64,000 bases of DNA, taken from a virus. This document shows positions 11,131 through 64,000 of this stretch, piece after piece. Positions within the stretch are counted from its first letter, which is position 1, and every line of letters starts with the position of its first letter. Below the pieces are notes generated by a model. The model worked only from the letters and a program-made list of their open reading frames with translations. It had not been told where the DNA came from and ran no database searches. A program made the translations under genes and the position numbers. Location of the stretch: the IMG/VR virus record IMGVR_UViG_3300036765_000035. The stretch is one strand, 5' to 3'.

Positions 11131-11142
11131 ATGTATATTTAT

Positions 11143-11173
11143 AAAAAAAGGAAGATTATAATCTTCCTTTTTT
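11143..11173 (-). terminator. Bidirectional hairpin terminator (AGGAAGAT..ATCTTCCT) with flanking A-run and T-run, downstream of the tail tube gene.
   Basis: 8-bp perfect stem and 4-nt loop, A7 on one side and T6 on the other. Confidence 0.55.
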
Positions 11174-12627: not shown

Positions 12628-12854
12628 TCAAATTGGATTTCATCATTTGAACTTAGTGTAAAATTTAATTCAATTTGTCTTATTCCTACATTTGGTTTAA
12701 TTGTATATTCCAAAAAAATCTCATGTAAACCATCTTCATTCTTCTTTATATCAATTTTATTTAAACTATGTTCACAATTATTAAAATTGTATTCAAATGA
12801 TTTTATTCTTTTTTTATTTCTATGTTCTTCTAAACTATAAATATTATTTTTCAT
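12624..12854 (-). CDS. Small hypothetical protein
   Basis: 76-aa ORF, start/stop-coupled to the upstream endonuclease gene. Confidence 0.3.
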   Translation of the reverse strand: MKNNIYSLEEHRNKKRIKSFEYNFNNCEHSLNKIDIKKNEDGLHEIFLEYTIKPNVGIRQIELNFTLSSNDEIQFD

Positions 12855-17502: not shown

Positions 17503-20500
17503 TTAATAATTTGGTAAATTATAATATGTTGCCATATCACTTTCTATTGATAATATATCAGGTGTTGGGACGTTGGTTGGGTATATGATTATCTCCTGTA
17601 CATATCCAATTGAATTACGTGTTGCATCTGCACCAAATCCAATATTATGCGTTGACCATGTTAATGTATTTGCATCAGATATTGTCAACATTGATTGTAC
17701 TCCAAACAATTCACCATAAAGACCATTTGCACTATTTCCAACATCAACAGCATTTGCATACATTGTTGGTGTACCTGCATTGGCATAACTTGATGAAAGT
17801 GTTGTATTTTCTGAAAATCCAACATATTCATTTATACTATCATGCATTAATACACCAGAATCTCTTGTTTGTTTTATAACTGCAAATATTGTTGTACTAG
17901 ATGAGCCACTAAAGAATGATGATAATATATCAGATTCATTTGATACATATTTAAATTTAAACGCTGGGTTTGAGTTCAATGTTTCCATACCATTATTATA
18001 TATTGTTGGTTGTAATAATGGGTCTGATTGTATCCAATCGTTTCCATTACCAGATTGGTCATATACTCTAACAACATACATAGTTACCCATGGTCCCCCT
18101 GCAAAAGAAACAATTGAAGTTGTATCCAAATTATTAGACCCATCATATCCAATATCCAACTCTGCATCATCTGTACTACGTCTTACCCTTAATATTGGTC
18201 CTTCATAATATTTATCTATTCTTCTAGAAGAAGACATTGCACTTATTGCACCACTATAATCATTTAATAGTAAATTTGCACTACTACTTGCACTAGGTGT
18301 CGGTGTTGGTGTAGGTGTATTACTTGCTGTTGGACTAGGTGTTACACTAACTGTTGGTGTCGGTGTTGGTGTAGGTGTATTAGTTGGTGTAATACTTGGA
18401 GTTACACTAGCACTTGGAGCAGGTGTTGAGCTAGGTGTTACACTTGGTGTAGGACTAGGTGTTACACTTGGTGTTGGTGTTGGTGTAGGGCTAGGTGTTA
18501 CACTTGGTGTAGGACTAGGTGATACAACTGGAACGTTTGGTATTTGACATTCACCGTTCTCTTCTAATACATAATCCAATGCCACTAAATTATTTACTGG
18601 TGGAATTACATTTTGTGATATTTCAGCAGATATCCATGATGTTTTAAAGAAATCTTTGACTTCTTTTTTGACACTAAACACATCATGTAACACATCGAAA
18701 AATATATCATTTACTTCTGTTATAGAAAAATTTTGATATATATATTCCATTGAATCAATTATGTCTTTATTTGTATCAAAGGAATAATTCTTTCTAAATT
18801 CATTTATATCAATATATCCAAAGTTTCTATTACTATCGTTAATAATACCCAATATTGATTCTAATGCCAAATCTGCTTTTACAAATATTTGTTCTTTTCC
18901 TAAACCATATTTTGTATCTGCATCATATAAACTATCATATAGTTTTCTGTTATAAGATGGCAGTGGAATATCATCATATAATGTTCCATCAACATATTTG
19001 TAACCTATTAATGCTTCTGTTATTTCATCCCATAATACTTTATCTATTTTTTCAAATTGACCTCTTCTAATTAATTTCCATTCTTCATGGACATTTTTTA
19101 AATATAAATTAGATTTAAACGCATCTTGGTTTGGCATTCTGTCTCTTAAAGTAAAATCTCTAGTGAATCTTAATGAATATCTATTATTATCTTTAACAGT
19201 TCCTTCTAGATTTTTTGCAATCATTTGTGTATATCTAAATGGCAAGTCATATTCATATTCATCATAAACATTACCATAAATCAAACCATATCCATAATCA
19301 GGTGTTTTAATGCCTTGTAATATCATATAAGGATGTGGCATATTTTTTAATTGCTTTTCAGCTTCATAACATGAAATTCCTGTACCTTGTTGATTTATAA
19401 TATGTTTTGTCTTTTTATTTCTTACCCAAAAATAATATTTGTATTCTGTTTTATTTCCATTTTTGTTATGGTTTGCTACCATATTATATGGTCGTACTAT
19501 TTTAAAATCACCATTAGCAAATTCAGTATCTGTTATTTCAAGAACTGTTGTTAAGTGAATATACGCACCTATACCATATGTTGCAATATAATCGTTTACA
19601 TGTGTTATATTGACTATTTTTCTTTCAATGAACTTTCCATTAATGTAAACATCTGTTTCTACCAATGGCAACAGTAATGTTGCATCTTCCACTCCTAATA
19701 TCCATTCAAAATGTTCTTTTTTAACCTCTAAATAATATTCATAACTTGTGACAGTTTGTGTAAACGGATTATAATCATATTGGATAAATCTTGCATGTAT
19801 TTGTTGTAATGGAATTCCAGTAATTTTTTCAGATAGCAATTTATTTGAGTTTGCTTCATCTAAAATTGACAATTCCTCATATTCATCTGGTGGTACATCT
19901 GACTCTACCCATTCATATAATGCAATATCAGACCATTCAGATTTTTCCCCCCAAACTTTTATTCTATCATTTAATTTTGGATATATTGATTTATCGTAAT
20001 ATGGTAAATATCCTTCTGCATAATCGTCAAACCATACTTGACCAACAAATTTTGAACCCCATAATGGTTTTTGATTTTCATATTTTGCTGGGTCTTCATC
20101 ACCTTTATATGTAACAATGTAATTAGATATATGGTAATATTGACCCAATGCTGGATTCCACAATGGTATATTTGTCACAACTGTACCAGAACTTTTATCA
20201 ATTAATTTTGCTGGATTCTGTGCATCAAACTCATATGTTAATAAACTTACTTTTAATCCTGACACACCATCAATGCTACTCGAAAATTGAATAAATTTAG
20301 ATGATAAAAATTCAAAATCATCACCTTCTATTAAAAATACATCTTTTTCTTGAACAGAATCATAATATGATATTATTGCACCATCTGCAATCATTCCATT
20401 TAAATCTAATAGTCTATGATTACCTGATTGTGAATATAATAACGTTTCTGCATTTTCAATTATATCTAATACTTTAGTATTAAAATAAAATGAAACTCTT

Positions 20501-23500
20501 GGTGAAAATTGTTCTAACTCATCTGGTTGATTCCACCATCGTGATTTATCAGTTAATTTTATTGGTTCAAACGTTTCATCCAATTGACCGCCTTCTGGTT
20601 CAATAAACTCTAATCTTAATTCAGTCCTTACAACATCATCTGTATATAGTTTTAATTCTGGATATATTTTTTCTTTTGAATCACCAAATGTTCCAAGTTT
20701 ATATGCCCAAAACTCATCAATAATTGCACTTTGGTATATTTTTTGGTTTGTAAATGCATCTATTGCATATTTTGTTCCTTTGGATTGAATCATTCCTCTC
20801 CAAAATATGAATTGTGATTTTGGATTCAATTTTATGTCATCCATATAATCTTTTGTTCCATCAAATCCCATTGATTTTCTTAACAATTTAGTGGCATCGC
20901 TACCTTCTAAAGATGTATATGTGCTATAAAAATTTCTCATTTCATCAACAGAACCTTCAATGTTTTGAATTTGTTGTTTATCTAACAACATTGTTCCACC
21001 AACGTTTGGTCTTAATGTAAAATCATTTTGTCTGTTAAACTGTACGGAAAATCTTGGTGTATTTAAACCAAAAAATGAATCATATATTAATACATTATTT
21101 GTAGAATAATCAGAAAATTGTATAATATGTTCATATGCATCCAAGAATAAGTTCATACCAGAAATATATGTTTTATTTTTATCTTTTGTATATTCTTTAT
21201 TGTTATTTTGTGTAATAGAATCAATTAATGATATATGTGATTGTCTATCATTTCTATATATCACCAATTCATCATTTGTCATTTTACTTCCATGATTATC
21301 ATATATATGAGGGGATATATAATTATTTTCTCCTTTAAATACATTTGATATTACACCAGTATCATGTTCAACCCATACGTTATTTTTAAATGGATTTAAT
21401 TCAAATGTTGGTAACTTTTTGATATCAATATATATTTTTGCTTTAAGTGTCCCAATTCCATCATCAGAAAATTGAATAGCTTTACCTTTTTTTGCATCCA
21501 ACAATGAAGATGCCAATTGAAAAGTGTTATTGTTTGTTCCTCTTATGACATAATATGGTATAGTAGCCGATATAGGATTATTGAACACAGTTGGAAGTGA
21601 ACTTCCGCTTTCAGCAATTAATAATATTCTTGTTCCATTTTGCCATGTTGATACAGCATTATTTAATAAAGTGAAACTATTGTTTGTATTATCAAATGCA
21701 ATGTTATATTCTAATTGATTGTCTTGTTTTAATGTTTTTAACTTATAAAAGTTATCAATCATTTTTTCAATTTCTAACTGCCATTCGTTTGGTCTACCTT
21801 CATCCAAATCAACATTATCACCTATATGATTTGATATAGTAAACCCAATGTCATTTAAATAATCAGAATATCCATGTATCACATCAATAATATTTTGAAT
21901 TTCTGTTATAGTAAATGGTGCAACCCTTGTTATGATATTTCTTTTATCAGAAAAATGTTTTTTCCAAACACTTTGAGTTTGTTTTTGTTTTAATATATTG
22001 AAAGTTCTTTCGATGTTTCCAATCATATGTTGACCGTTGCCATCATCTGAAACTCCAATTGTTATATTTTTTAATGCATTTTTTTCATTTTCTGCTAAAC
22101 TAAATTCTCTATCATTTAATCTTATTAAATAATATGGATATTCAGGAGTTAAACCATTTGGTAATTCGTCATTTGATGATACAAAAATTTCTTTTCCTGT
22201 AACCCATTCATCTGGTAATGTTAATGCATTATTAGATTCAATTGTCCCATCAATAACGTTTGATGACATTATAACATCTTCATACACATAAATATTTGTT
22301 ATTCCAACATTATCATATGTTACATTTTTAACTGTGTATGTTCCATTAAAATTTGTTGAATTAGTGACAGTAAAGGTTGACCCAATACTAAATTCTAGTA
22401 AATTATTTCCCTTAACTTTAAATACTTTTTCAAATTCTATATCCATTAAATCAGATGCCTTAATTGATATAAAACTTGAATGTAAATTGTTAAATAAATC
22501 TATATCAGTTATTGATATTGAAGATGATACTCCATTTGTTTGACTAGAAATAACAATATTTCCTTCTTTCAAATATGCAGTTGCATTATTTCCTAATTGG
22601 GTATTGATAACATTTAATAAATCCTGAAATGTTATTGTATCTGTACCATCAACAATTAAATCAATATTAAGTAATCCATCAACCAAAACATTAGCAGAAT
22701 ATGTGGTTGCTGTATTTAATTCTGTTTGTTTACTCAAATATATACTATTGCCATAGTCAATTACTTGATATCCATTTTCATCAACATAATCAACATCATA
22801 CACATCATGTGTATACAATCTAAATGTATCATTTTCACCATTTTTTAATTTAAATTGATAATTTTCTGGGTGATAATATGATATTGTTCTATTTACCAAT
22901 GAATTAGTATCTAAACTTATATTCCAACCAATTCCATTATCTCTATTTGGAGCATACTTACTGGGAATACTTAATAGTGTTGCATTTAACGAATCTAATG
23001 AGATATCTCTAATGCCATTTGTTTTTTTAAATAAAATGTTATAATCTTTGTTCGTTATATCAAAATTTTCACTATATATTAAAAAATTTTGCGTATCAAT
23101 AAATGCACCAAACATATATGATAATTTTGATTCCCAATCTTTCCATAAACTTCTAAATTCAGATGATACACCATCATACCCATTAAATCGATTATAATGT
23201 ACATACCATTGGTTCAAACCATTCATTTTTTTAACATTTGTTGTTCCATCAATAAAATCACCATGAAACTCAACATTTTTATGAGATGGTACTGTTTTTG
23301 TTTCTTTATCAACATTTAAACATGAAATAAATGTCAAATCATATCCAAAGTTTTGGAATATGAATCTCATTGGTTGTAATTTATATGATATCACCAATTT
23401 GTCATATTCTTTTCTAGACGAATTTCTCCATAACCATTCAAACTTGCCATTTTGACCAAATTCGAAATCATCAAAAGTTGTTACACCGAAATCTTGTTCA

Positions 23501-26500
23501 TTTGCATCATACACTGACCTTACATTTATATTTGCAGAATTACTAGAATTCCAAAATGGTGGCAATAATTCATCAGACTTATATCCATCAACAGTTGTTG
23601 AATTATCAATATTAACTGAAAAATAAGTAAATGTATTTAATATTTGACCTGCTAACCCTGTCCCATATGTTTCATATGCATCTTCTTCAGCATCATTTAT
23701 AAATGTTGTTGTACTGACTATTCCCTTGTCTAATGGAATTATTCCATTTAAAATATTAACCCACATTTGTTCTTTCCAATATCTATCAACAAATGGGTCA
23801 TCATTCAAATATTCCTCATCCCACCATTCAGGTTTATTATTATAATTTTGTAACATCCAAGGTTCTTTATGTGGGTATGGTGTGTTATATACCTTTTCAT
23901 ACAATGCTTGCCATGAACCACCAACATCATTTGATATAGTTCCTGTCAATGGATGTGTTTGTATTTGAGTATATGAATAATTCCATGTAAATGGGTCATT
24001 TTGCCTATAATAATTTAAATTACTCAATGGATTATCTATTCCAATATTTTTATAATATTGAATAAATTGTTCATATGATAAATTGTTATATTTTACATCT
24101 GATAATATTGAGTCAAAATCAAATTGACTCACGACATTAAAATCAACAACATCATATAATTTCTTTTCTATTTGATATAATGCTTCCTGTAGTATTAAAT
24201 TTAAATTTACTTCTTCCCAAATATCTAATGATAAATTATACCTATATAATCTACGTGTGTTTTTATTGGTATTTGTTCTAATAATATAATCACCATTTTC
24301 TAATGGTTGACCGTTTAATAATAAAGGAAAACTTTCATTATCATCTAATATTGTAAAACTTTCATTATTTACAACACTAAATATATCATTGTACATTAAT
24401 TCAAGTTCAGGTTTTTCATAACCAACTTTACTTCTATGACCATCATGATGAATTAACTCAACTTCTTGTGTTTTTTCATCATATATTTTATGTGGAACAT
24501 GTTTTTTACTCATTCCAAATATTACTGGTGATGCAATCCAATTTCTAACACCATTATTTCCATTATAAGATGTTGTGTCACCAAACCATTTATTTAATCT
24601 ATCATTATTTTCAAATTCATCTATTAAATATTCAACTATTGCATTTTGCATAGAAATAACACCGTCATATGATAAATCTGTCAACATATTTCTTGCTTTT
24701 GTTCTGAAAGTCTCTATTATATGTTGCTTTTGGAACATATATGTATCATGTGCAAAGTTTATTAATTCTATAGGTGTCACATTTTTTACAAAAATTGATG
24801 ACAATAAAGTATCAAAACCATCATTATGTTCCTTTATTGTTCCACCAATACCATAATTCACATCATCATTCACATAAAAATAATCTATGTCATTTAATAA
24901 AGATACAATGGGTTTTTGTGATGATATAATTGTTGTAAAATGACGATATAATTCTGTAAGTTTTACATCTCTTCTATTTTCATGTTCAACATTGAAATAC
25001 ATTTGATTCGGCAAATTCCAATTTTCATCTTCATCTTTGTAAGGTTTATATTCTTCAAGATTTTTCCCCTTCTTCCATACAGTTTGTATTTCATCATTTA
25101 CTAGGGAAATGTCTTTATATCCATATATTTCATTTGTATTTTCATTTATTAATAAATTCTCAAATGTATAATCTCTTTTAATTGTATCATGTTCTATTCT
25201 TTTCAATATATTCAGATTTAATGGATATTCTGATGATTCTTTAAATCTAAATATTTCATTTGCAAAAAGTTGAGGTTCTTCAAAAACATCAAATATTCTA
25301 AAAATAGGATATTGGTGTATTTCTGTTTTTGTTTGTTCAATTTTTTTAAAATTTGTTAAGTTGTATAATTCAATCCCTGTTGGTGTGTTTACTTCAACAT
25401 GTCTTTTACCTGATTCTTCAAGAGCGTATTCTCCTACTTCAACTCTAACTCTATCTCTTTCTCCTTTTACAAAAACATCATCATCAAATGTAATCCCTGA
25501 AACATAGATATTATCATCACTTAATTCAGTAAAATTGCCATATTGTCTGACATCATTTATATATACTCTGATATCTCCTTCTTGATAGTCCTCTATCAAA
25601 CATTTATCTCTTAACCTTATATCAATTGATGATGGAAACACAACAGTTTTTGCATAACCATCTGTATCATATACGCATTCAATATAATTATAATTTGTGA
25701 CATATTCATATTTATGTACTGGATTTACTCCAATATTCAAATATGAACTTAAAAATGGGTTAACTTCTGGTGTTATACTTGTTGGTATTACTTCTTTAAT
25801 TCCTAATAATTTCCAATGTTCTAAATGACCTTCAAATATATCTCCCCTTGATGTATATTTTGGTGTAATTGATGAGCCAATTGGTTTATCTGTTATATCA
25901 ATCAAAGCTTCTTTTAATGTTATCTCAATTCTATCTATGCTGTATGATGAAATAGACTGAATTGTATATTGTCCACTATTTAATTCAAAATCTGATAATA
26001 TTATGTAATCCCCTATGTTAGATTCATCTACAAAAAGTCCATATTTTCTTGAAAATCGTATTGTATTTTTATCAATTAATTCAAATTCTTCGTTTCCATT
26101 ATTTACAATGTTTAACAATTCAAATAATTTTGGCTCATTGTCAATTTGAACATAATCACTTAAAGATGTTTTCCTATATTCCCATTCTTTTACAGAATAT
26201 GCAACATGTGTTAATTCCAAATATGGTGAATATTCGATAATAGGCATTTGTGCCTTTACTTTTCCTGTGAATGTTTTTAATTGTGATTTATGTTTCCACT
26301 TATTTTGTTCTGCCCAATCATTTGTTGGAAAACTATCAATTGTATGTTTCCCATTAGATAACAAGGAAAATGTTGTAAAATTCTTTATGATGATATTCCA
26401 AGATACACCATCCCATTGAAGTATATCATCAGTTACATCATTCCAATATACATCATTTATCTCAGGTGATATTGGTGCTGTGCTTGATTTTGTATTATCT

Positions 26501-27867
26501 ATTAAAAATTTTCTATAAACAAAATAATCAAATTTTCCGTCGGTAAAAAAGAATGGCAAGTTTGATGTCCACCACAATTGATTTATAGATGAGTAACCAA
26601 AAAATTCACGTTCTCCTATATTTGGTCCTGATGTTATAACAACAACATCACCATCATTAACAATGCTTAAATCAACAACAGTGTCATTCATTGAAATATT
26701 AGAAAAAAGGACTTCACCTCTTGTTGATTCTAATATTACTTGTTTTTTATTCCATAAAATTTCACCAATATTACTTTCTTTAAAACTTGTAAATTTATTT
26801 GAATAATTATTACACACATAGTTTTTTTCACCTTCTATTTCAAGTAAGTGGGGTGATAATGTAATTGTTGTATCAGTTAATGATGATATTTCTTCATTAA
26901 CTGTAATCGTTGTTAAATTTGTTAAAACATCATAAGTTGATTCTTTTACACTCCAAAACGTTAGTACACTATTTGATGATACCGAAGATGCGAATACATA
27001 CCCATTTATTAACAGTTTTGTTAAATCATTCGATATTTTAATCGTTTTATCAATGTCATTATATGAAATAATTTTTTGTGTGGTGTTTACAACATATTGC
27101 ATATTAAACTCTGATGGCATTACTCTACCACTAGTAGTATCAAAAAATATTTCTGTTTGTGTTGTTGATGGATTATATACAACATTTAAAACTTCATATA
27201 TTTCAACATCTCTATCACTATTTGAACATGCCAATATGTTTCCTATATTTGCAAATGAAGTTTTATTTCCATTTATACAGATTTTATTTAAATTATAATC
27301 ATGTGCAACTATTGTTTCATTTGGTAATACATCTGTTACAGCTCTATTTGTTTCTAATAACCTTGCATTTGACCAAGTACACAAATTTTTAATTGTTATG
27401 TATTGTGGAACATCATTAAAAGATGACACATCCCAATAATAATTTTGATAATTAACTATTTTATCAATATCAATTGGTGGGACAAAGTTGAATTGTGTTG
27501 AATTTCCCCATGATGAAAAATTATCTAAATCAACACCTGTTCTCTCTATACGTGTTAAAAAATCTTCAAATGACATAAAATTATCAACATCACCAATTTT
27601 TGTATGCAATACTGGTTGTAATTGATTATTTTGTCTAAATGTGTTAATTTCTGTTATAGGGAATTCATTAGGGGAAGCTATATTATATTCTTCTCCTATT
27701 AATCCAATAATTCTTTGATACTCTGGTTTTGAAAAAACTCTGTTATATAAATTATGATTTATTGTTTCAACTAATTTTGTTCTATTAACACTAGGTAATA
27801 GATTATTTAAATCTGTTCTAACTTTTTTATAATCTGATAAATTTTTGTCTTGCACGGATTTCCCCAA
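17503..27867 (-). CDS. Giant (3454 aa) baseplate/tail-fibre protein with a C-terminal Pro/Thr/Ser-rich linker and a distal domain
   Basis: Single uninterrupted ORF after the gp6-like gene. PT linker [22 protein letters not shown]... lies about 85 aa before a roughly 260-aa C-terminal domain. Confidence 0.6.
18290..18540 (-). repeat. Imperfect tandem DNA repeats (ggtgttggtgtaggtgtatta... units) encoding the Pro/Thr/Ser linker of the giant protein
   Basis: cggtgttggtgtaggtgtatta occurs twice about 60 nt apart, with many degenerate copies. Confidence 0.7.
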
Positions 27868-45323: not shown

Positions 45324-45331
45324 TATAAATA
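45324..45331 (+). promoter_or_regulatory. T4-type late promoter box TATAAATA upstream of the 45349 gene
   Basis: Exact TATAAATA 18 nt upstream of the ATG. Confidence 0.45.
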
Positions 45332-48047: not shown

Positions 48048-48055
48048 TATAAATA
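48048..48055 (+). promoter_or_regulatory. T4-type late promoter box TATAAATA upstream of the portal gene
   Basis: Exact TATAAATA 26 nt upstream of the portal ATG. Confidence 0.5.
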
Positions 48056-51752: not shown

Positions 51753-53618
51753 ATGGAAAAATGGAAAACACTTCAACCTACAACGTCAGATATTTCTGAC
51801 GTTTCTTTTTTAGTTAAGGAATATAAAGATAAAAAAACTTCAAATATTCGAATTAAATATCCACAAGAATATGTGAATTTAATCAATATAACAAGTTTTT
51901 TACCTAATAATGCATCCACAACAAATAGATTATGGCATATTGAACATAATGTATTAGAAACAATTAAATGTGAAAAATGTAAAATAAATGATGTTAAATG
52001 GTATCCATCAAAAGGTGGATATGGTGAATATTGTTCAGTAAAATGTTCGAGTAATTCAAATGATACAAAAAATAAAATAAAAGAAACCAATTTAAAAAAG
52101 TATGGTGAAACATCATATACAAAAACAAAAAAACATAAAAAATTTTTAAAGTCTGATGAATTTAAAAATATAATGAATTCAAGAGAAGTTATAAACAAAA
52201 GAAAGAAAACTAATCTTGATAGATATGGAGTAGAAGAAATATTCCAATCTAATGAAATACAAGAAAAAATTAAAGAAACAAATGAAACAAGATATGGTGT
52301 TGACAACCCTATTAAATCGGATGAAATAAAAGATAAAATAAAAAGAACAAATTTAGAAAAATATGGAACTGAAACTCCATTTCAAAACAGTGAAATAAGA
52401 GATAAAGCTAAAGAAACACTTTATTCAGAATATGGTGTTGAATATGGGTTGCAAGCAAAAGAAATATTAGATAAAACAAAACAAAAATATTACGAAAGAA
52501 CAGGATATTCAACCCCATTTAACAATCCAATAGTTAAAGAAAAAATCAAAGAAATTTTTAAGAAAAAATATGGTGTACACCCAACACTCAAACAGTTTTC
52601 AGATAGAACAATCCAACGAATAAATGATGCAGAATGGTTGAAAGAAAAACACCATACTGAACAAAAAACATTGACAGAAATTTCTTTAAAATATCTTGAA
52701 GGATATGATATATCATCATTGTCAAATAGAATGAAACAATTTGGAATTGAAATAAATTCAAAATTGGTTTCCTTTGCAGAAAAACAATTAAGAGAATATA
52801 TAATATCTTTAGGTATCGATATTGTAACCAATGATAGAAAAACTATATCACCAATGGAATTAGATATATACATTCCAAGTTATAATATTGCAATTGAGTA
52901 TTGTGGAATATATTGGCATTCAGAATTATATAAAGATAAAAAATATCATAAAAATAAATACGAAAAGTGTAAAACACAAGGAATCAGATTAATAACCATT
53001 TTTGAGAATGAATGGATATACAAAAAAGATATTGTAAAAAATAAAATAAAGCATATTTTAGGGAAAACAATAACAAAAATATTTGCAAGAAAATGTAAAA
53101 TACGAGAACCAAGAAAAAAGGATGTTATTGAATTTATAAACAATAATCATATACAAGGATTTAAAGCATCAACAAATTACATTTCATTATATTATGATAA
53201 CAAGATGGTTTCATGTATGTGTTTAACAAAAATAAAAGAAGGATTATACAATATCGATAGGTTTGCATCAAATACAACTGTTATAGGTGGATTTAGTAAA
53301 TTATTAAAATATTTTATAAAAAATAATTTTGATAAGATTGATAAAATTGAAACTTTTTCTGATAATAGATGGGATAATGGTAATGTTTATTTAATAAATG
53401 GATTTAAACATGATAAAGAACTAGCAGAAGATTACTCATATGTTGTTAAAGATAAAACATATCATAAATCAAATTATAGAAAAAAGAATTTAAAAAATAA
53501 ATTACATTACTATGATTCAAATTTGACAGAACATCAAAATTGTTTTAATAATAAAATATATAGAATATATGATTGTGGGAAAGTTAAATTTACTTTAGAT
53601 ATAAAAAAAGAGGAATAA
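51753..53618 (+). CDS. Free-standing homing endonuclease-like protein, a paralog of 12844..14397. N-terminal Cys cluster, six roughly 30-aa K.K.TN..KYG... repeats, then a Vsr-like PD-(D/E)xK nuclease domain.
   Basis: ELDIYIPSYNIAIEYCGIYWHSELYKDK ... GIRLITIFENEW parallels the other copy and the Vsr signature. The shared C-terminal block ends KIYRIYDCGKVKF (compare KIYDCGNMVWSY). Confidence 0.6.
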   Translation: MEKWKTLQPTTSDISDVSFLVKEYKDKKTSNIRIKYPQEYVNLINITSFLPNNASTTNRLWHIEHNVLETIKCEKCKINDVKWYPSKGGYGEYCSVKCSSNSNDTKNKIKETNLKKYGETSYTKTKKHKKFLKSDEFKNIMNSREVINKRKKTNLDRYGVEEIFQSNEIQEKIKETNETRYGVDNPIKSDEIKDKIKRTNLEKYGTETPFQNSEIRDKAKETLYSEYGVEYGLQAKEILDKTKQKYYERTGYSTPFNNPIVKEKIKEIFKKKYGVHPTLKQFSDRTIQRINDAEWLKEKHHTEQKTLTEISLKYLEGYDISSLSNRMKQFGIEINSKLVSFAEKQLREYIISLGIDIVTNDRKTISPMELDIYIPSYNIAIEYCGIYWHSELYKDKKYHKNKYEKCKTQGIRLITIFENEWIYKKDIVKNKIKHILGKTITKIFARKCKIREPRKKDVIEFINNNHIQGFKASTNYISLYYDNKMVSCMCLTKIKEGLYNIDRFASNTTVIGGFSKLLKYFIKNNFDKIDKIETFSDNRWDNGNVYLINGFKHDKELAEDYSYVVKDKTYHKSNYRKKNLKNKLHYYDSNLTEHQNCFNNKIYRIYDCGKVKFTLDIKKEE

Positions 53619-53630
53619 ATCCTCTTTTTT
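53608..53630. terminator. Bidirectional hairpin terminator (AAGAGGA-ataaa-TCCTCTT) between convergent genes
   Basis: 7-bp stem flanked by an A6 run and a T6 run. Confidence 0.55.
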
Positions 53631-53994
53631 AACTTAAACCAAGCATTGCATCATTTCTTCTTCTAGCACCATCCCTTTCTCTAGGTCCACCTTGAGTAGC
53701 TTGAACATTACGTGGTACTCTACCACGAGCCTTGAATGCCCTAGAATCTGCTGAACCATATTCCTTGGCATATTTAGCCATATTGACCCCACGTGGTGTT
53801 AATTCTTCATCAGGTGTTGCTAAACCATATGCAACTAAATCATCAAATGCATCAAGTGTACTTTCTTTTGCAACACTTAAATCTAACGCACCATCATACA
53901 TTTTTTTAAGAACAAACACATGTATTGGTAATAAGTCATTAAGTTTAACATCATCTGATTCAAATGATTCAAATAAAACGTTTTTTATTTTCAT
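53629..53994 (-). CDS. Small protein with locally elevated GC and atypical codon usage, with an Arg/Gly-rich C-terminal tail. Possible recent horizontal acquisition; function unknown.
   Basis: 121-aa ORF whose DNA (ccacgtggtgt..., gccctagaatctgctgaacc...) is visibly more GC-rich than its surroundings. C-terminus ARGRVPRNVQATQGGPRERDGARRRN. Confidence 0.4.
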   Translation of the reverse strand: MKIKNVLFESFESDDVKLNDLLPIHVFVLKKMYDGALDLSVAKESTLDAFDDLVAYGLATPDEELTPRGVNMAKYAKEYGSADSRAFKARGRVPRNVQATQGGPRERDGARRRNDAMLGLS

Positions 53995-54132: not shown

Positions 54133-54206
54133 AGGTGAGTGGTGTAATGGTAGCACAGCGTTCTCCAAAAGCGTTAATGGGGGTTCGATTCCTCTCTCAC
54201 CTGCCA
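54133..54206 (+). tRNA. tRNA-Trp (anticodon CCA), with encoded 3' CCA
   Basis: Hand-folded cloverleaf. Acceptor AGGTGAG/CTCACCT 7 bp, U8, D-stem GTGT/GCAC, anticodon stem GCGTT/AGCGT with wobbles, loop CTCCAAA, T-arm GGGGG-TTCGATT-CCTCT, discriminator G, CCA. Confidence 0.75.
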
Positions 54207-55494: not shown

Positions 55495-56217
55495 ATGAAT
55501 CATTTAATTGGTATGGGAATATTTTTATTTATATATGCAGTTGCATATATTTTGTTTTTAAAAAATCATAGACAATATAATATAATTGCATTGCCATTAG
55601 TAATGGCATTAATTGTGTCATTGGGTTTTAGTGGAGCAACATTCTATGCAGAACCCGGTTTTATATATCATGTACGAACAATTACAGGAACTGAAAAAGT
55701 AATCAGTGATGTAGGGTATAATTTCCATTGGTTTGGGAGATATAACTCATGGAAAAGAGCGATGACTGTACAATCAACAGACATTGGAAATAATAATGAT
55801 ACTGATAAATTGACAGCAGAAAATACTGATTCAACTGTATTGTCAGCCATGTTACGTCCACAAAAAATAGTATTTCTTGACCAAGTTGATGCATTGATTC
55901 AATCATCTGTTAGGTTCAAAATTCCTTCAGAAGAAGAAGCTTTTTTAAGATTGGTACATGAATACAGAACACCAGATAATCTATTAAGGGCAACTTTAAT
56001 TCCAGCATTTAGAGAAACATTACAGGCAACAGCATCTTTAATGACAGCAGAAGAATATTATTCTGGTGGAAGAACAGAGTTTAGTAATGAATTTGAAACA
56101 CAGATGAATGATGGAATTTATATTGTTAAAAGGATTGAAAAAATCGAAAAAAATGTTGTAACATCAACAAGTTCCGCAAATGCATCGAAGGGTTGTAACT
56201 GTTTCATATTAATATGA
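55495..56217 (+). pseudogene. 5' portion of an SPFH/band-7 (stomatin/flotillin/HflK-like) membrane-protein gene, interrupted by the IS607-like element. The last ~10-15 codons read into the insertion.
   Basis: N-terminal TM helices, then band-7 core blocks (VRFKIPSEEEAFLRLVHEYRTPDNLLRATLIPAFRETLQATASLMTAEEYYSGGR ... GIYIVKRIEKIE). The ORF ends a few codons after GIxV..V.I.xI, where SPFH proteins normally continue. Confidence 0.5.
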
Positions 56218-56267
56218 TAAATTTTATAGAAAATTATATTTAATTTGCAATTTATATAAATACAAGT

Positions 56268-56867
56268 ATGAATAAATTAATATCTTTACAAAAAACAAGT
56301 GAAATATTGTGTCTTTCTAAATGGGGAGTCCGAAGAACACCAGAATCAATATTGCCAGTTTATCGAACAGCAGGAGGACACAGAAGATATAAACTTCAAG
56401 ATGTACAAAAATTAATAGGAGAAGAAACTAAACTAATAAGTGATGACAATAATGTTGCCATTTATAGTAGAGTTTCTTCTCATGAACAAAAGAAATCAGG
56501 TGATTTATCACGTCAAAAAGACAGATTAATCAATTATTGCATTAATAAACAATATACAATTGTATCCAACCTCGAAGAGGTTGGTTCTGGTATGAATGAT
56601 AAAAGACCAAAACTGGTTAAATTAATTGATTTGGCATGTAAAGGTGAAATAAATAAAATAATAATTGAACACCGAGACAGATTAACCCGTTTTAATTTTA
56701 ATATTTTTAAATTATTTATGAAACACCATAATGTTACTATTGAGGTTATTAAAGAATCAGAAAAAATATCTTTTGAAGAAGAATTAGTATCAGATATAAT
56801 TTCATTGATGACATCATTTTCTGGAAAAATTCATGGGAAGAGAAGCCATAAAAATGTTAATAAATAA
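56268..56867 (+). CDS. tnpA: IS607-type transposase TnpA: MerR-like HTH fused to a serine recombinase (resolvase) catalytic domain
   Basis: HTH region SEILCLSKWGVRRTPE ... YRTAGGHRRY. Catalytic-serine motif AIYSRVSSHEQK. 199 aa, overlapping tnpB by 35 nt. Confidence 0.75.
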   Translation: MNKLISLQKTSEILCLSKWGVRRTPESILPVYRTAGGHRRYKLQDVQKLIGEETKLISDDNNVAIYSRVSSHEQKKSGDLSRQKDRLINYCINKQYTIVSNLEEVGSGMNDKRPKLVKLIDLACKGEINKIIIEHRDRLTRFNFNIFKLFMKHHNVTIEVIKESEKISFEEELVSDIISLMTSFSGKIHGKRSHKNVNK

Positions 56868-58074
56868 AACATACAAAACAGAAATCAAACCAAATAATAA
56901 ACAGAAAACATTTCTTATGCAAAGTTGTGGTGTTTCGAGATTGGCTTATAATTGGGGATTGGATTTAATAAAAAATGATTATGAGCAAGGAGAAAAATAC
57001 AAAGGAGCGATTGGACTTCATAAAGCACTCTGTGCTATTAAAAAAGCACAATTTCCGTTTATGTATGATGTTAGTAAACAAGCACCCCAAAATTCACTCC
57101 GTGACTTAGATAAAGCAATGAAAAATTTTTGGAGAGGAATAAAAAATAAAAAACATATAGGGTTTCCTAAATTTAAATCAAAAAAATATTCCAAAAATTC
57201 ATTTCGTATTGATGGAGCAAATATTGATGTCACTGATAATTTTGTTAAATTACCAAAAATTGAAAAAATAAGACTGAAAGAAAGAAATTATATTCCAACT
57301 GAAAACATAAAAGTGCTGAATTGTACAATATCAAAAGAAATAAACCGATGGTTTATTTCTGTGTCAGTACAAGAAGAAATATTTAATGATAATATTCCAG
57401 AAGAAATTATTGGAATTGATTTAGGAATCAAAGATTTGGCTACTTGCTCCAATGGATTGATATTTAATAATCCAAAATATACAAATAAGTATGCTAAACA
57501 ACTAAAGTTTGCTCAACGAGAACTTAGTAGAAAAATAAAAGGTTCTAAAAACCGAGATAAACAACGCATTAAAGTTGCTAAAATACATAAGAAAATTAGA
57601 AATTCCCGAAAAGACACAATTAATAAAATGACCTCTAATATCACGAAAACCAAGTGCAGAATTATTGGAATTGAAAATCTGTGTGTATCAGGAATGACTA
57701 AGAACCATAAATTAGCAAAGGCAGTCACAGATGCCAGTTTTTTTGAAATAAGACGACAACTAGAATATAAAAGTGAATGGAATGGTGGCAGAATTTGTTT
57801 AGTTGACAGGTTTTTCCCTTCTTCCAAAACTTGTAGTTGTTGTGGATTAATCAAAGAAATGCCATTAAATGAACGGGTTTATTCATGCGATTGTGGATTT
57901 GTGATGGACAGAGACCTTAATGCGTCTATTAATTTAGAAACATATACCGCAAGTTCTGCGGAATTTAATGCTTATGGAGAGAACATAAGACTCGCTTCTA
58001 GTGAACTAGAAAAAAGCAATCTCTGTGAAGTAAGAAATAAACTTGAATTTGAATATATTGCTCAAATTCTGTAA
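56833..58074 (+). CDS. tnpB: TnpB (OrfB_IS605 / Cas12 ancestor, RNA-guided endonuclease family), apparently intact
   Basis: RuvC-I IGIDLGIKDLATCS (D), RuvC-II IIGIENLCVSG (E), zinc finger CSCCG...CDCG, RuvC-III DRDLNASINL (D). 413 aa. Confidence 0.85.
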   Translation: MGREAIKMLINKTYKTEIKPNNKQKTFLMQSCGVSRLAYNWGLDLIKNDYEQGEKYKGAIGLHKALCAIKKAQFPFMYDVSKQAPQNSLRDLDKAMKNFWRGIKNKKHIGFPKFKSKKYSKNSFRIDGANIDVTDNFVKLPKIEKIRLKERNYIPTENIKVLNCTISKEINRWFISVSVQEEIFNDNIPEEIIGIDLGIKDLATCSNGLIFNNPKYTNKYAKQLKFAQRELSRKIKGSKNRDKQRIKVAKIHKKIRNSRKDTINKMTSNITKTKCRIIGIENLCVSGMTKNHKLAKAVTDASFFEIRRQLEYKSEWNGGRICLVDRFFPSSKTCSCCGLIKEMPLNERVYSCDCGFVMDRDLNASINLETYTASSAEFNAYGENIRLASSELEKSNLCEVRNKLEFEYIAQIL

Positions 58075-58579
58075 GTTTTATAGAACGGAAGAACAAGAAC
58101 TATTAGCAAATGCAAAAGGAAAAAGACAAGTTGCTGAAAGACAGGCACAAGCAAAAGTTGAACAAATTGAACGTACAACTAAAGCAGAAACCGAAAAACA
58201 ATTAGCAATTACAGAAGCTTTAAAAATTAAAGAAAAAGCAACAATTGAACAAGAAGCAGCTAAGATTCAACTAGAAAGAGACAAACTAGTTGCTCAATCC
58301 CAAAAAGTTCTTGCAGATGCTGAAGCGTATAAAAGAAATGCAATTATTAAATCAGATAATGCGTTACAACAAAAACTTGAAGCTGAAATAAAAATTCAAA
58401 AGGTTTGGGCAGATGCATTTGCTCAACGTAAAGTTCCTCAAACAATGTTTATAACAGGAAGTTCAGGTGAATCAGGTCATGTTGGTTCAAACAATGAGTT
58501 GCAAAATATGATGCAAATGATGACACTTCAAATGGCAAAAAATCTTGATAACGATAGAAAAGTTGTAAAAGATAAGTAA
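58043..58579 (+). pseudogene. 3' portion of the same SPFH/band-7 gene (C-terminal coiled-coil/flotillin-like region), downstream of the IS607-like element. The frame opens at 58034 inside the end of tnpB.
   Basis: AKGKRQVAERQAQAKVEQIERTTKAETEKQLAITEALKIKEKATIEQEAAKIQLERDKL is a band-7 C-terminal helical repeat. The ORF has no ATG and begins within the IS. Confidence 0.5.
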
Positions 58580-58630
58580 CATTATAAAAAAACAGATATA
58601 AATAATATGATATTAAACAATAATGGATAA

Positions 58631-61014: not shown

Positions 61015-61089
61015 GAACCAGTCGTCCAACGGTTAAGACGCTAGACTTTCAATCTGGTAATGGGGGTTCGATTCCCCTCTGGTTCTCCA
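61015..61089 (+). tRNA. tRNA-Glu (anticodon UUC), CCA encoded
   Basis: Acceptor GAACCAG/CTGGTTC, D-stem CGTC/GACG, anticodon stem CTAGA/TCTGG, loop CTTTCAA, T-arm GGGGG-TTCGATT-CCCCT. Confidence 0.65.
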
Positions 61090-61154
61090 ATCTTTTATTT
61101 TTTAATATTAAAAGATTCATAAATAAAATATTATGAAACTTGAAAATATATTAT

Positions 61155-61229
61155 GTGGGTTGTAGCTTAATGGCAAAGCAGAAGTTTGTGGCACTTCTGA
61201 TACGAGTTCGATTCTCGTCAATCCACCCA
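61155..61229 (+). tRNA. tRNA-His (anticodon GUG) with encoded G-1 and CCA
   Basis: G-1 opposite discriminator C. Acceptor TGGGTTG/CAATCCA, D-arm GCTT-AATGGCA-AAGC, anticodon arm GAAGT-TTGTGGC-ACTTC, T-arm ACGAG-TTCGATT-CTCGT. Confidence 0.8.
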
Positions 61230-61333
61230 ATATAAAAATGGTTGTTGAAATATACTAGCATGGTGGTAGCTAACCACCACATTAAATAATTAAAAAGCGT
61301 TCGACTTGGAGAAGTCAGAAAAACAATCATTTT

Positions 61334-61407
61334 GGGGATATCGTCTAATGGGAGGATAAAACTGTTGCATAGTTTAGATTTCGGTTCGAATCCGAATATC
61401 TCCACCA
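61334..61407 (+). tRNA. tRNA-Ala (anticodon UGC), CCA encoded
   Basis: Acceptor GGGGATA/TATCTCC, anticodon arm AAACT-GTTGCAT-AGTTT, T-arm TTCGG-TTCGAAT-CCGAA. Confidence 0.75.
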
Positions 61408-61413
61408 ATTTTT

Positions 61414-61491
61414 CTCTGTGTAGCTTTAATCTGGTAGAGCACTCGTTTTGGGAACGAGGGGTTAGAGGTTCGAATCCTCTCACGGAGACCA
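61414..61491 (+). tRNA. tRNA-Pro (anticodon UGG), CCA encoded
   Basis: Acceptor CTCTGTG/CACGGAG, anticodon arm CTCGT-TTTGGGA-ACGAG, T-arm AGAGG-TTCGAAT-CCTCT. Confidence 0.75.
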
Positions 61492-61636
61492 AACATAAAA
61501 AAATGAAAGAGTAAAAATAAATAGAGTAAAGATATATATTTCACATAAGTGCATTCCCTATTAAGATGTTAATAGAACGAAGGTTGTAAAAGGTCAATTA
61601 AATGTATATCGGTGAGACATCACTACTCTATTTTTT

Positions 61637-61727
61637 GGATGTGCGGTGACGATGGTGGTGTCACGGCAGACTGTAAATCTGTCCCCTCTGGGTAACATTG
61701 TAGGTTCGAATCCTACCGCATCCACCA
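61637..61727 (+). tRNA. tRNA-Tyr (anticodon GUA), type II with a long variable arm, CCA encoded
   Basis: Acceptor GGATGTG/CGCATCC, anticodon arm GCAGA-CTGTAAA-TCTGT, long variable region, T-arm TAGG-TTCGAAT-CCTA. The D-arm region is slightly irregular. Confidence 0.6.
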
Positions 61728-61821
61728 ATTTTTAAACCTCATTTAACAATAGGAAAAATGGTTTGAATAAATATATAAATACACATATAAATAAATATTT
61801 ATAACCATTAGAGGAATTATT

Positions 61822-62460
61822 ATGAGTCACAAAGAATTGTTGCATAAAATTATTGAAAATATTATTGAAGGTAGAACTGAAGATAATGATAGGTTGTTTT
61901 CAGAATACTTAACTAAAAAATCTAAAGATGTATTATTGGAGAAACATGAAGTTATAGTAAAAGAAGAATGGTCACCATCTGATATACGTTCCTTCATTCA
62001 GGGTATTTCTGATAAAACATTATATAATGCAGAGATAACAAATACATATGATGAAATTTTAAATATGATGCACCGTTATGGTGTTATTGATTTGAATCAC
62101 GATGATTATAAGCAAGTAATTAAGTACATTAAAAAGTTCAGCAAAGAAAAGGATTTTGATAAATTATATCAAAAATTTAGAGAAGAAGATGGTGCATATG
62201 ACAAAAAAAATCTATATGCATATTTAGATACTTTATCTTCAGATAAAGTCTTTAATCTTGGAAATAAAGAAAATATGATGAACCATGCAACGATTAAATA
62301 TTTGTTTGATAAAGAAATAATTAACTTTAATGCTAGAATCAATAATGAAGACAATATCGACTTATTAAAAAGTGCTATTAGAGATTATTGGAAAAATACA
62401 CATGACCAAGAATATATTAAACAAAAAGAATTGATTAAACGTAATTATGGAATTGAATAA
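61822..62460 (+). CDS. Hypothetical protein encoded inside the tRNA cluster, flanked by a repeated tRNA 3'-end motif
   Basis: 212-aa ORF with a consensus-like RBS (AGAGGAattattATG). Confidence 0.45.
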   Translation: MSHKELLHKIIENIIEGRTEDNDRLFSEYLTKKSKDVLLEKHEVIVKEEWSPSDIRSFIQGISDKTLYNAEITNTYDEILNMMHRYGVIDLNHDDYKQVIKYIKKFSKEKDFDKLYQKFREEDGAYDKKNLYAYLDTLSSDKVFNLGNKENMMNHATIKYLFDKEIINFNARINNEDNIDLLKSAIRDYWKNTHDQEYIKQKELIKRNYGIE

Positions 62461-62488
62461 TAACATTAAAGAAGGGTAATATTGAGAT

Positions 62489-62502
62489 ATCCACCAATTT
62501 TT
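62489..62502 (+). repeat. Orphan copy of the tRNA 3'-end motif ATCCACCAATTTTT (also at 61721-61734 after tRNA-Tyr; CCACCAATTTTT also follows tRNA-Ala at 61403-61414)
   Basis: 14-nt direct repeat bracketing the 61822..62460 gene. No tRNA body precedes this copy. Confidence 0.6.
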
Positions 62503-62513
62503 TATAAAAAAGG

Positions 62514-62541
62514 TTGACAGTTTAAATTAAATCATTATAAT
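62514..62541 (+). promoter_or_regulatory. Consensus sigma70 promoter (TTGACA, 16 nt, TATAAT) upstream of the second tRNA group
   Basis: aggTTGACAgtttaaattaaatcatTATAATataaaa. Confidence 0.6.
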
Positions 62542-62571
62542 ATAAAAAACATTATAATTATGTTGGGTGTG

Positions 62572-62649
62572 GGATAAAGTTGGAGCGTTACAACTGAATA
62601 TAAATCAGTTCCCGTTAATGGAAAGTAGGTTAGAATCCTACCTCATCCT
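62572..62649 (+). tRNA. tRNA-like element, probably a degenerate/pseudo-tRNA. Acceptor has mismatches, T-loop TTAGAAT lacks C56, anticodon loop ATATAAA, long variable region.
   Basis: T-arm GTAGG-TTAGAAT-CCTAC and anticodon arm ACTGA-ATATAAA-TCAGT fold well. The acceptor GGATAAA vs CTCATCC pairs at only 5 of 7 positions. Confidence 0.3.
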
Positions 62650-62706
62650 CTTAATTATATTAAGAAATTAAACAATTTAATATTATGTACTATAAAATAT
62701 TAATAA

Positions 62707-62781
62707 TGGCAATTAGCTCAGTGTTAGAGCACCACTCATCGGGAGTGGAGGTCAGAGGTTAAATTCCTCTATTGCCAACCA
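62707..62781 (+). tRNA. tRNA, probably Arg (anticodon UCG). The anticodon loop is non-canonical (A at position 33) and the T-loop is TTAAATT.
   Basis: Acceptor TGGCAAT/ATTGCCA perfect, D-arm GCTC-AGTGTTA-GAGC, anticodon arm CCACT-CATCGGG-AGTGG, T-arm AGAGG-TTAAATT-CCTCT, CCA encoded. Confidence 0.5.
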
Positions 62782-62804
62782 GATTTTGTAAATAAAAATA
62801 TAAT

Positions 62805-62880
62805 GGGTCTGTAGTTTAATTGGAAAAACACAATACTTTTAATATTGAAGCTTTCCGTTCAAGTCGGAACAGACCCACCA
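62805..62880 (+). tRNA. tRNA-Lys (anticodon UUU), CCA encoded
   Basis: Acceptor GGGTCTG/CAGACCC perfect, D-arm GTTT-AATTGGAA-AAAC, anticodon arm CAATA-CTTTTAA-TATTG, T-arm TTCCG-TTCAAGT-CGGAA. Confidence 0.8.
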
Positions 62881-62901
62881 AATTAAAAAAAAAATATCAT
62901 A

Positions 62902-63540
62902 ATGTACTATTTAATATATAAAACTACAAATATAATTAATGGAAAAATTTATATAGGTGCACATAAAACAAATAATATTGATGATGGTTATATTGGTTCT
63001 GGAATTAAATTGAATGAAGATATTATTAAATATGGCAAGAATTCTTTTAAAACGGAAATATTGGAATATTTAACAAATTCTGAAGAAATGTATCAAAGAG
63101 AAAAAGAAATAGTGAATGAAGATTTTATCATTAGAGTTGATACATATAACATGATAGTTGGTGGAAGCGGTGGTTGGGAATATGTTAATGATATTTTAGA
63201 TACAGAACACTATAGTCATTCTGGTAAATTAGGAAACAAAGCACTCCAAGAACGTAGGAAAGATAAAGAATGGAATGAAAAATATATCGATAAACTAAGA
63301 GTTGCAAATAAGAAAAAATTTAAAGGAATAAAAAATAGTGAAACAAGTTTTTTAGGAAAAAAACATACTGTTGAAACTAAGAAAAAAATAAGTAACGCAA
63401 ATAAAGGAAATGGTAAAGGTGAGAATAATTCACAATATGGAACAATGTGGATTAATGATGGAATTGTTAGTAAAAAGATAAAAAAAGATGATGAAATACC
63501 TGAAGGGTTTAAAAAAGGTAGAAAAATGAAAAATAAATAA
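62902..63540 (+). CDS. GIY-YIG homing endonuclease with NUMOD3 DNA-binding repeats (Seg-like), located inside the tRNA cluster
   Basis: N-terminus YYLIYKTTNIINGKIYIGAHKT (GIY...YIG). ...R..Y and N motifs follow. C-terminal NUMOD3-like GKKHTVETKKKISNANKG. Confidence 0.8.
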   Translation: MYYLIYKTTNIINGKIYIGAHKTNNIDDGYIGSGIKLNEDIIKYGKNSFKTEILEYLTNSEEMYQREKEIVNEDFIIRVDTYNMIVGGSGGWEYVNDILDTEHYSHSGKLGNKALQERRKDKEWNEKYIDKLRVANKKKFKGIKNSETSFLGKKHTVETKKKISNANKGNGKGENNSQYGTMWINDGIVSKKIKKDDEIPEGFKKGRKMKNK

Positions 63541-63541
63541 T

Positions 63542-63616
63542 GTACTCTTAGCTCAGTTGGTAGAGCATCTCACTGAAGATGAGATGTCCTCGGTTCGAAT
63601 CCGAGAGAGTACACCA
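63542..63616 (+). tRNA. tRNA-Phe (anticodon GAA), CCA encoded
   Basis: Acceptor GTACTCT/AGAGTAC, D-arm GCTC-AGTTGGTA-GAGC, anticodon arm TCTCA-CTGAAGA-TGAGA, T-arm CTCGG-TTCGAAT-CCGAG. Confidence 0.85.
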
Positions 63617-63621
63617 AATAT

Positions 63622-63695
63622 GACTCTATAGTTCAACGGTAGAACGGCTGTCTGTTAAACAGCGAATGAAAGTTCGATTCTTTCTGGAGTCTCCA
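63622..63695 (+). tRNA. tRNA-Asn (anticodon GUU), CCA encoded
   Basis: Acceptor GACTCTA/TGGAGTC, D-arm GTTC-AACGGTA-GAAC, anticodon arm GCTGT-CTGTTAA-ACAGC, T-arm GAAAG-TTCGATT-CTTTC. Confidence 0.8.
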
Positions 63696-63700
63696 AAAAA

Positions 63701-63843
63701 TAAAATAGTGAAATGTTGTGTGATTGTGGAGGTAGGGTTACCCCACGTAAATAACAGAAATACCCAAACAGATGAGTTATGGCAGTAAGAGTGCTCCATG
63801 TAAATAACAAAAATCTCTAAACAGAAATGACATTTCACTATTT
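63701..63843. repeat. 143-bp element bounded by a perfect 14-bp inverted repeat (AAAATAGTGAAATG / CATTTCACTATTTT) and containing two roughly 30-bp direct repeats (CCAyGTAAATAACArAAAT.C..AAACAGA)
   Basis: Inverted and direct repeats read directly from the sequence, immediately 3' of tRNA-Asn. Confidence 0.6.
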
Positions 63844-64000
63844 TATTAATGAAATTGAAATATGAGAAAATGAAATACAATGGTATTTAATTAATACCTA
63901 TATTATATAGAAAAATAACGAATAAATCAAGAATTATTTCTTTTTTCCTTTTAACATAAATATTATAATGATAAAATCAGAACGACACATAATAAAAAGA

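Follow-up and report, generated by a model that had tools for sequence, protein, structure and literature searches.

The IMG/VR virus record IMGVR_UViG_3300036765_000035, of which we analyzed a stretch of 64,000 nucleotides (the window, whose positions are used throughout), very likely carries a complete, autonomous insertion sequence of the IS607 family. The element is about 1.9 kb long, is resident in a T4-like phage and, in all likelihood, transposed very recently. Every defining feature of IS607 that can be examined in silico is present, and the element is young and very probably active. An intact IS607-family TnpA/TnpB element in a T4-like phage had been proposed in a first-pass annotation of the window, and the family models, catalytic residues and ends described below agree with that proposal. 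The span given there, 56180-58100, located the element correctly but not its ends, which lie at 56190-56193 on the left and at 58088 on the right.

The phage is T4-like, as first described: the window encodes a T4-type portal (Portal_T4), an S77 prohead protease, a tail sheath, a gp5-like spike and a family B polymerase. The element has a G+C content of 0.286, like the 0.274 of the rest of the window, which argues that it is not a misassembled host fragment. Two overlapping + strand open reading frames (ORFs) of 199 and 413 aa fill most of it, and its parts are as follows.

56189-58090, + strand: identical block, that is, the element plus A-GG (left) and AA (right), common to both insertion sites
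56190-56192, + strand: left-junction GGG, which holds the GG crossover dinucleotide and, with the preceding base, forms the putative target or transposon-adjacent motif (TAM) RGGG
56193-56267, + strand: non-coding left end, defined by left-end alignment; starts with TTGTAAC directly after RGGG
56268-56867, + strand: tnpA, predicted IS607-type serine recombinase/transposase of 199 aa, with an N-terminal helix-turn-helix (HTH) and a C-terminal catalytic domain (putative catalytic Ser in YSRVSS)
56833-58074, + strand: tnpB, predicted RuvC nuclease guided by RNA, with 413 aa if the first ATG is used and 406 aa from the conserved start at 56854
58087-58088, + strand: right-end terminal GG; nucleotide conservation among seven right ends stops exactly at 58088

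An identical copy in a second gene and the ends of the element

Recent transposition is supported by a second copy of the element at another locus. Base-by-base comparison and blastn show that window positions 56189-58090 are 100% identical over 1902 bp to a copy lying in a Mom-like gene (contig L004, 3771-5672, and also L005), found in metagenomes of the same sample series, and that the sequences outside this block are unrelated. The second locus therefore encodes identical TnpA and TnpB proteins, and the recent insertion that had been suggested for the window gains a direct counterpart in a different gene. The 1902-bp block was also assembled alone, as collapsed-repeat contig L006, in one sequencing run. 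Such a stand-alone contig typically arises when a repeat has more than one context, and it argues for at least two contexts within that run. The junctions are not the chimera of one assembly, because independent assemblies agree on them: left-flank contigs continue into the element in three assemblies, and one right-flank contig starts at the element's left edge.

Comparing the two copies places GG at both junctions, in the arrangement A-GG(G)...AACGG-AA. The left end is known to ±1 nt, since either pair within the GGG could be the crossover core. In related elements with 60-77% TnpB identity, the left junction reads R-GGG-T(T/G) in seven of seven cases and the right end finishes in ...AGAACGG, again in seven of seven; the terminus here is ...GTAAGTTTTATAGAACGG. 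Homology to the interrupted host gene, which encodes an SPFH protein, resumes at 58088 in a blastn comparison with the intact gene in contig L007. We found no terminal inverted repeats and no target duplication at the element ends, and the flanks have only short junction bases in common. A 14-nt motif in the left end, TAAATTTTATAGAA (56218-56231), recurs in direct orientation at the right end with 13 of 14 positions identical (direct repeat D10), and is a candidate binding site for TnpA.

From the seven left junctions and the literature we infer a TAM of the form NRGGG or RGGG. The left-junction motif NRGGG resembles published TAMs: the Clostridium botulinum IS607 IStron has a GG core and a TGGG TAM (10.1101/2023.11.20.567912), and GAGGG or AGGAG TAMs are known for IS607 TnpBs (PMC11061315).

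TnpA and TnpB are intact

TnpA matches the Pfam family Resolvase (2e-20) and scores 178 bits against the NCBIfam model NF033518, 'IS607 family transposase', for which the cut-off is 110. The latter match spans positions 16-186 of the 187 in the profile and so includes the N-terminal HTH; residues 29-49 give a weak match to a BldC/MerR-like HTH. The YSRVSS motif aligns with YARVSS in the catalytic domain of ISC1926 TnpA (PDB 6DGC), and TnpA also matches the solved structures 3ILX and 6DGB, which together with 6DGC represent the catalytic domains of the ISC1926, ISC1904 and IS1535 TnpAs. An N-terminal HTH, weakly MerR-like, joined to a catalytic serine block agrees with the first reading of the sequence, and serine recombinase activity is predicted on this basis.

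TnpB contains the Pfam domains HTH_OrfB_IS605, OrfB_IS605 and Cas12f1-like_TNB, and reaches 294 bits with the NCBIfam model guided_TnpB (cut-off 100). The three RuvC residues D196 (in IGIDLG), E281 (in IGIENL) and D361 (in DRDLNAS) and the four cysteines C334, C337, C352 and C354 are invariant in an alignment of 25 TnpB sequences, and the D/E/D set aligns with the RuvC residues of ISDra2 TnpB (PDB 8H1J/8EXA). The RuvC motifs and the CxxC..CxC zinc finger are therefore kept, as had been claimed, and a check for substituted catalytic residues or an internal frameshift found neither. TnpB would then be an ISDra2-like type partnered with a serine TnpA, and RNA-guided nuclease activity is likewise predicted. 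The relatives were collected in two ways: a metagenome scan with the TnpB alignment gave, among the matches listed, relatives of at most 53% identity, and those of 60-77% were retrieved individually.

The start of tnpB bears on how far the two genes overlap. The start used in most relatives corresponds to Met8 (56854) and leaves a tnpA/tnpB overlap of 14 nt; the overlap of 35 nt reported earlier is obtained only with the first ATG, at 56833.

A covarying omega-RNA at the right end

The last ~160 nt of the element show nucleotide conservation far above what the protein needs, and the last ~40 tnpB codons overlie this region. Two features are placed here.

57926-58088, + strand: omega-RNA scaffold (also termed reRNA), overlapping the tnpB 3' end; predicted to form five helices and to end at the right terminus
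58089-58108, + strand: predicted guide AAGAACAAGAACTATTAGCA, flanking SPFH sequence, placed according to the known TnpB mechanism

RNAalifold applied to nine sequences gave five helices with 30 pairs, 19 of them with compensatory changes. Besides a hairpin at 57947-57961, the helices include two stems that pair over long range and a hairpin at the terminus, GAATTTGA/TCAAATTC, which AAUAAAC/GUUUUAU encloses. A covariance model, R1, built from this alignment and run on 90 sources found 63 matches with E <= 0.01, spread over about 60 of those sources; almost every one sits on the + strand at the 3' end of tnpB. In the window it has a single match, 57926-58088, whose score of 166 bits is as high as those of the best relatives. 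Pairing holds in 95% of alignment cells across the 63 sequences and drops to 35-50% in controls with slid partners, although these percentages are somewhat inflated because the alignment was fitted to R1. Compensatory changes occur in all 30 pairs, and none of 500 shuffles attains these pairing and compensation values.

The fold of the single sequence is no stabler than shuffles (z = -1.0), and support for the omega-RNA consequently comes from covariation and not from energy. Rfam offers nothing at E <= 10 over 55900-58400 except noise, and at the gathering score it reports only tRNAs in the whole window. R1 also matches the tnpB 3' ends of Microcystis phage Ma-LMM01 (71 bits), Clostridium phage c-st (35 bits) and a Twort-like Staphylococcus phage (43 bits). 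Judged by sequence alone, the conserved RNA is the omega-RNA expected of such an element, and it is presumably expressed. A covarying omega-RNA at the tnpB 3' end had been named as a check on the annotation; it was found, with strong covariation, and R1 models, with good support, the omega-RNA of a large IS607 clade that has no family in Rfam.

Several metagenomic contigs hold two or three omega-RNA-like matches and one recorded tnpB match each. Such contigs are L012 (1639-1788, 4130-4284 and 6462-6644), L042 (2971-3137 and 3537-3692) and L048 (4121-4258 and 6213-6350, the latter on the - strand). These may be right ends standing alone, or elements that are partial or in tandem.

The guide of a TnpB is the flank 3' of the right end (10.1101/2023.11.20.567912; PMC11061315), which defines the 20 nt listed above. 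The only other near match in the window lies in the DNA polymerase gene (4220-4239, - strand; 17 of 20 positions, three mismatches), and none would be expected in shuffles. We rejected it as an off-target, since it is preceded by ATTTG and not GGG; the resemblance probably arose by chance, from coding sequence rich in Glu and Lys.

How the element would move and persist

Our proposed mechanism follows the published behavior of the IS607 TnpA/TnpB family. TnpA would recombine the GG at both ends and excise the element as a double-stranded circle, with the predicted junction ...TATAGAACGG joined to (G)TTGTAAC.... The circle would integrate at a GG within an RGGG-like target, without target duplication. 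From the tnpB mRNA, processing would release an RNA made up of the omega-RNA scaffold of ~160 nt (57926-58088) and, after it, ~16-20 nt of flank, and the TnpB-omega-RNA complex would cut DNA in which RGGG directly joins that flank. This is the arrangement of the empty joint left by excision, for which we predict ...GCATCGAAGG(G)AAGAACAAG... and ...GGTGCTAGG(G)AAATGTACT... at the two sites. Recombinational repair from an occupied genome copy would then restore the element. The occupied allele itself would be spared, because there the flank is preceded by ...AACGG instead of RGGG.

Target DNA is missing at both copies

The ORFs flanking the element are, by Pfam and alignment, two pieces of one SPFH/Band_7 gene:

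55495-56192, + strand: 5' part of the SPFH gene, equal to residues 1-233 of P0001 (Pfam Band_7; alignment up to ...ANASKG; blastn against L007)
58088-58579, + strand: 3' part of the SPFH gene, equal to residues ~311-475 of P0001 (from EEQELLANAKG), with no ATG of its own near the junction

The 5' ORF enters the element for eight junk codons and stops at 56217. The closest intact homologue is P0001 (475 aa), encoded in L007, a syntenic T4-like contig with the order portal, protease, homologue of a 182-aa ORF, and SPFH. In answer to the question of whether related phages also carry the insertion, the SPFH gene of L007 is uninterrupted. Compared with P0001 and L007, about 78-79 codons (~235 bp), including the conserved end of the SPFH domain, are absent between the two junctions. 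The first-pass annotation was right that the SPFH gene is split, but incomplete, in that the gene also lacks these codons. Excision could not restore it, because about 78 codons are missing.

The second copy shows the same kind of loss. The Mom-like gene is interrupted at residue 139 (left junction), and only its last eight residues, KCTYIYNL, are encoded in the right flank, so that about 44 codons (~130 bp) are absent in comparison with intact homologues of 191 aa. Most likely, the target stretch was lost either by recombination between two nearby insertions, in a pool of phage DNA that is highly recombinogenic, or by an adjacent deletion mediated by TnpA, which would recombine one end of the element with a second GG in cis. 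To our knowledge, insertion coupled to an adjacent deletion made by TnpA is undescribed for IS607.

A broader reading would join this loss to residence in phages. IS607 elements of this lineage would replace a stretch of the target (through a TnpA-mediated adjacent deletion that spans two GG sites, by cis target capture or cassette exchange) and, as phage-adapted residents whose tnpA has a leaderless promoter of the T4 late type, would spread between co-infecting T4-like phages in the manner of homing endonuclease genes. We regard this as a tentative and rather unlikely extension. If TnpA does make deletions, this would be a new outcome of IS607 transposition and a route by which transposons could erode phage accessory genes.

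In L093 (6366-6386; also L094), which carries a relative of 75% identity, a convergent ORF for a TylF-type methyltransferase ends 20 nt inside the element's right end. Here, too, the insertion may have cut off or replaced a host gene's 3' end.

Weighing the evidence

Several observations, in addition to the inflated pairing percentages mentioned above, count against a complete and recently mobile IS607 element. TnpB scores 256 bits with the NCBIfam 'exception' model IS607_TnpB (NF038280) and does not reach its cut-off of 350; its score with IS200_TnpB is higher (312 bits), and that cut-off of 425 is not reached either. The two insertion sites, site 1 in SPFH (window and L003) and site 2 in the Mom-like gene (L004 and L005), were assembled from different samples of one series, and the two copies may lie in separate genomes. 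The loss of target DNA at both copies is not predicted by simple IS607 integration. Four predicted excision products, from both crossover choices at both sites, were absent from an exact look-up in a collection of 15 billion proteins, and when we searched for this phage's SPFH allele in uninterrupted form, the best hit had 76% identity. We nevertheless favor the young insertion sequence over the three alternatives that follow.

The first is that the TnpB-omega-RNA complex has been co-opted as a weapon or homing device that cuts the intact SPFH alleles of co-infecting relatives. T4-like phages are rich in homing endonucleases, with a Hef-like one in this window; the closest TnpB relatives lie in phage-like contigs; and a T4-late-type motif at tnpA, described below, suggests long residence in such phages. 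However, an element with its TnpA and both ends intact that has freshly moved to an unrelated gene behaves as a transposon. Moreover, in the nearest relative the intact SPFH allele differs from the guide at five positions and lacks a GGG in front of the site, and the TAM-plus-guide arrangement would exist only in the excision product, not in wild-type SPFH, in which the ~235 bp missing here would separate the two. The earlier suggestion of a co-opted nuclease with a homing or anti-competitor function is unsupported by these data, since the element retains TnpA, its ends and its guide RNA, and we consider it improbable. Domestication of TnpB into a TldR-like RNA-guided regulator was rejected: it would entail loss of the RuvC catalytic residues, the transposase and the ends, none of which has been lost here.

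The second alternative is a decaying or inert relic that marks an old disruption of a dispensable gene. The failure to find an empty site or an excision product would fit a relic, and the further decay of SPFH, with about 78 codons lost, could mean age. A block of 1902 bp that is 100% identical in two genes leaves no time for decay, however, all catalytic residues are kept, and the omega-RNA score equals that of the best relatives. A relic is accordingly very improbable.

The last, an insertion of IStron or intron type whose removal from the SPFH transcript by splicing would leave the host gene functional, is hardly credible: the element is co-oriented with both interrupted genes and its removal restores the frame at both sites if the first two G's are the crossover, but the other choice leaves both joints out of frame, the SPFH domain lacks its conserved end in any case, Rfam searches (at the gathering score, and at E <= 10 over 55900-58400) brought up neither a group I intron nor another ribozyme, and the 75 nt between the left end and tnpA are too few for an intron core. 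We dropped in-frame restoration as evidence, since it depends on which two G's of the GGG form the crossover.

A T4 late-promoter motif before tnpA

The young insertion sequence, as we read it, carries a further sign of its phage setting in front of tnpA.

56255-56262, + strand: putative T4 late-promoter motif TATAAATA, ending 6 nt before the tnpA ATG

T4 late promoters have TATAAATA as their consensus. The phage-borne relatives L092, L093 and L095 (~75-77% identity) carry it in this position, and the bacterial-type relatives L014, L017, L018, L026 and L083, which are more distant and lie on G+C-richer contigs, have TTGACA-N17-TATAAT there instead. If they function as promoters, both arrangements would place the transcript start on the tnpA ATG and so produce a leaderless mRNA. 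The exchange suggests a lineage adapted to T4-like late transcription. Because TATAAATA is not enriched in the window (30 found, against 22.6 ± 4.6 expected), it is the conservation of its position that points to a late promoter. A sigma-70 promoter scan over the element gave the same result as shuffles, and a terminator scan was uninformative.

The same motif lies 6-27 nt before the starts of other ORFs, that of the portal among them, at 48048-48055, 45324-45331 and 58597-58604 and, on the - strand, at 7202-7209 and 11136-11143. This placement is consistent with T4-type late promoters.

Two leads come from this element: a T4 late motif where bacterial relatives have a sigma-70 promoter, and target DNA missing from both insertion sites. 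IS607/TnpB elements, GG-directed serine transposition and guide-RNA-based retention were already established, and our find changes little in that respect. Its value lies in a cleanly delimited young element with exact ends, present in two identical copies, in a T4-like phage of presumably virulent type.

Relation to known elements

Among the closest known systems are the IS607 elements and IStrons of C. botulinum and C. senegalense examined by Zedaveinyte et al. (10.1101/2023.11.20.567912). They have in common with the present element a serine TnpA with a TnpB, a GG core at both ends, a G-rich TAM (TGGG there, RGGG here), an omega-RNA that overlaps the right end and the tnpB 3' end, and the absence of inverted repeats and target duplication. 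The present element differs in lacking a group I intron, in residing in a T4-like phage of ~27% G+C, and in the target stretch missing at both copies. Protein identity to the element of Clostridium phage c-st is only ~41%.

Phages are known to carry this type of element. Ma-LMM01 (gp136/gp135), c-st (ISCbt4) and Twort-like Staphylococcus phages (MerR-like/TnpB) have the same tnpA-tnpB pair and the same omega-RNA class, with TnpB identities of 40-46%. Staphylococcus phage PALS_1 retains only a short MerR-like ORF in place of the upstream gene, whereas TnpA here is full length. Searches with tblastn found TnpB homologues in 427 phage records, and the closest relatives are in phage-like contigs; the view that insertion sequences are rare in virulent T4-like phages was therefore overstated. 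Near-identical DNA occurs in none of 50,697 phage records, and a search of IMG/VR for close relatives of TnpB or of the SPFH fragments returned only matches of 31-35% or nothing.

ISDra2 TnpB, of the IS200/IS605 family (PDB 8H1J, 8EXA, 8BF8), matches over its full length with 200 bits and has the same D/E/D residues and zinc finger. It is the second-best match among solved structures, behind the nuclease 9yyg, which was designed by artificial intelligence. The ISDra2 omega-RNA also overlaps the 3' end of its ORF. In ISDra2 the partner of TnpB is a transposase of the Y1 HUH type and the TAM, TTGAT, is T-rich, whereas a serine recombinase and a G-rich junction are found here.

Elements of the RAGATH-18 type (ISFba1; PMC11061315) have an IS607 TnpB, a G-rich TAM (AGGAG/GAGGG) and a guide taken from the 3' flank, as here. 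Their reRNA, which has the RAGATH-18 motif, begins only after the ORF has ended, whereas the RNA described here overlaps the ORF. Membership of this type was rejected: no Rfam match appears at E <= 10, and only 14 nt separate the tnpB stop from the element end.

Other features of the window

An ORF of 517 aa (12844-14397, - strand) lies among structural genes. Its best phage matches are Hef-like/HNH homing endonucleases of the Pseudomonas phage PA5oct group and of Campylobacter phages (34% identity over 99% of the query), and by this homology it appears to be a second kind of selfish element in the window. Ten tRNA genes are present, for Trp at 54133-54206 and, just downstream of the element within 61015-63695, for Glu, His, Ala, Pro, Tyr, Arg, Lys, Phe and Asn. 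Two ORFs of 212 aa lie amid these tRNAs (61822-62460 and 62902-63540), one with a faint match to NUMOD3, a DNA-binding domain of homing endonucleases.

A giant ORF of 3454 aa occupies 17503-27867 on the - strand. A homologue of ~45% identity, in pieces, is directly upstream of the 77%-identical element in L092, which shows L092 to be a related phage with the element at a different locus. About 150 bp at the end of the window (63841-64000) are 90% identical to 7232-7384 of the second-copy contig L004, at its end, and 86% identical in L005. This stretch is a dispersed repeat or a paralogous segment, and it hints that the two contigs come from the same phage or from sister phages. Finally, a peak in G+C at 53500-53950 (0.33-0.38, against ~0.22 around it) with negative GC skew corresponds to a conserved small gene on the opposite strand, which is also present in L007.

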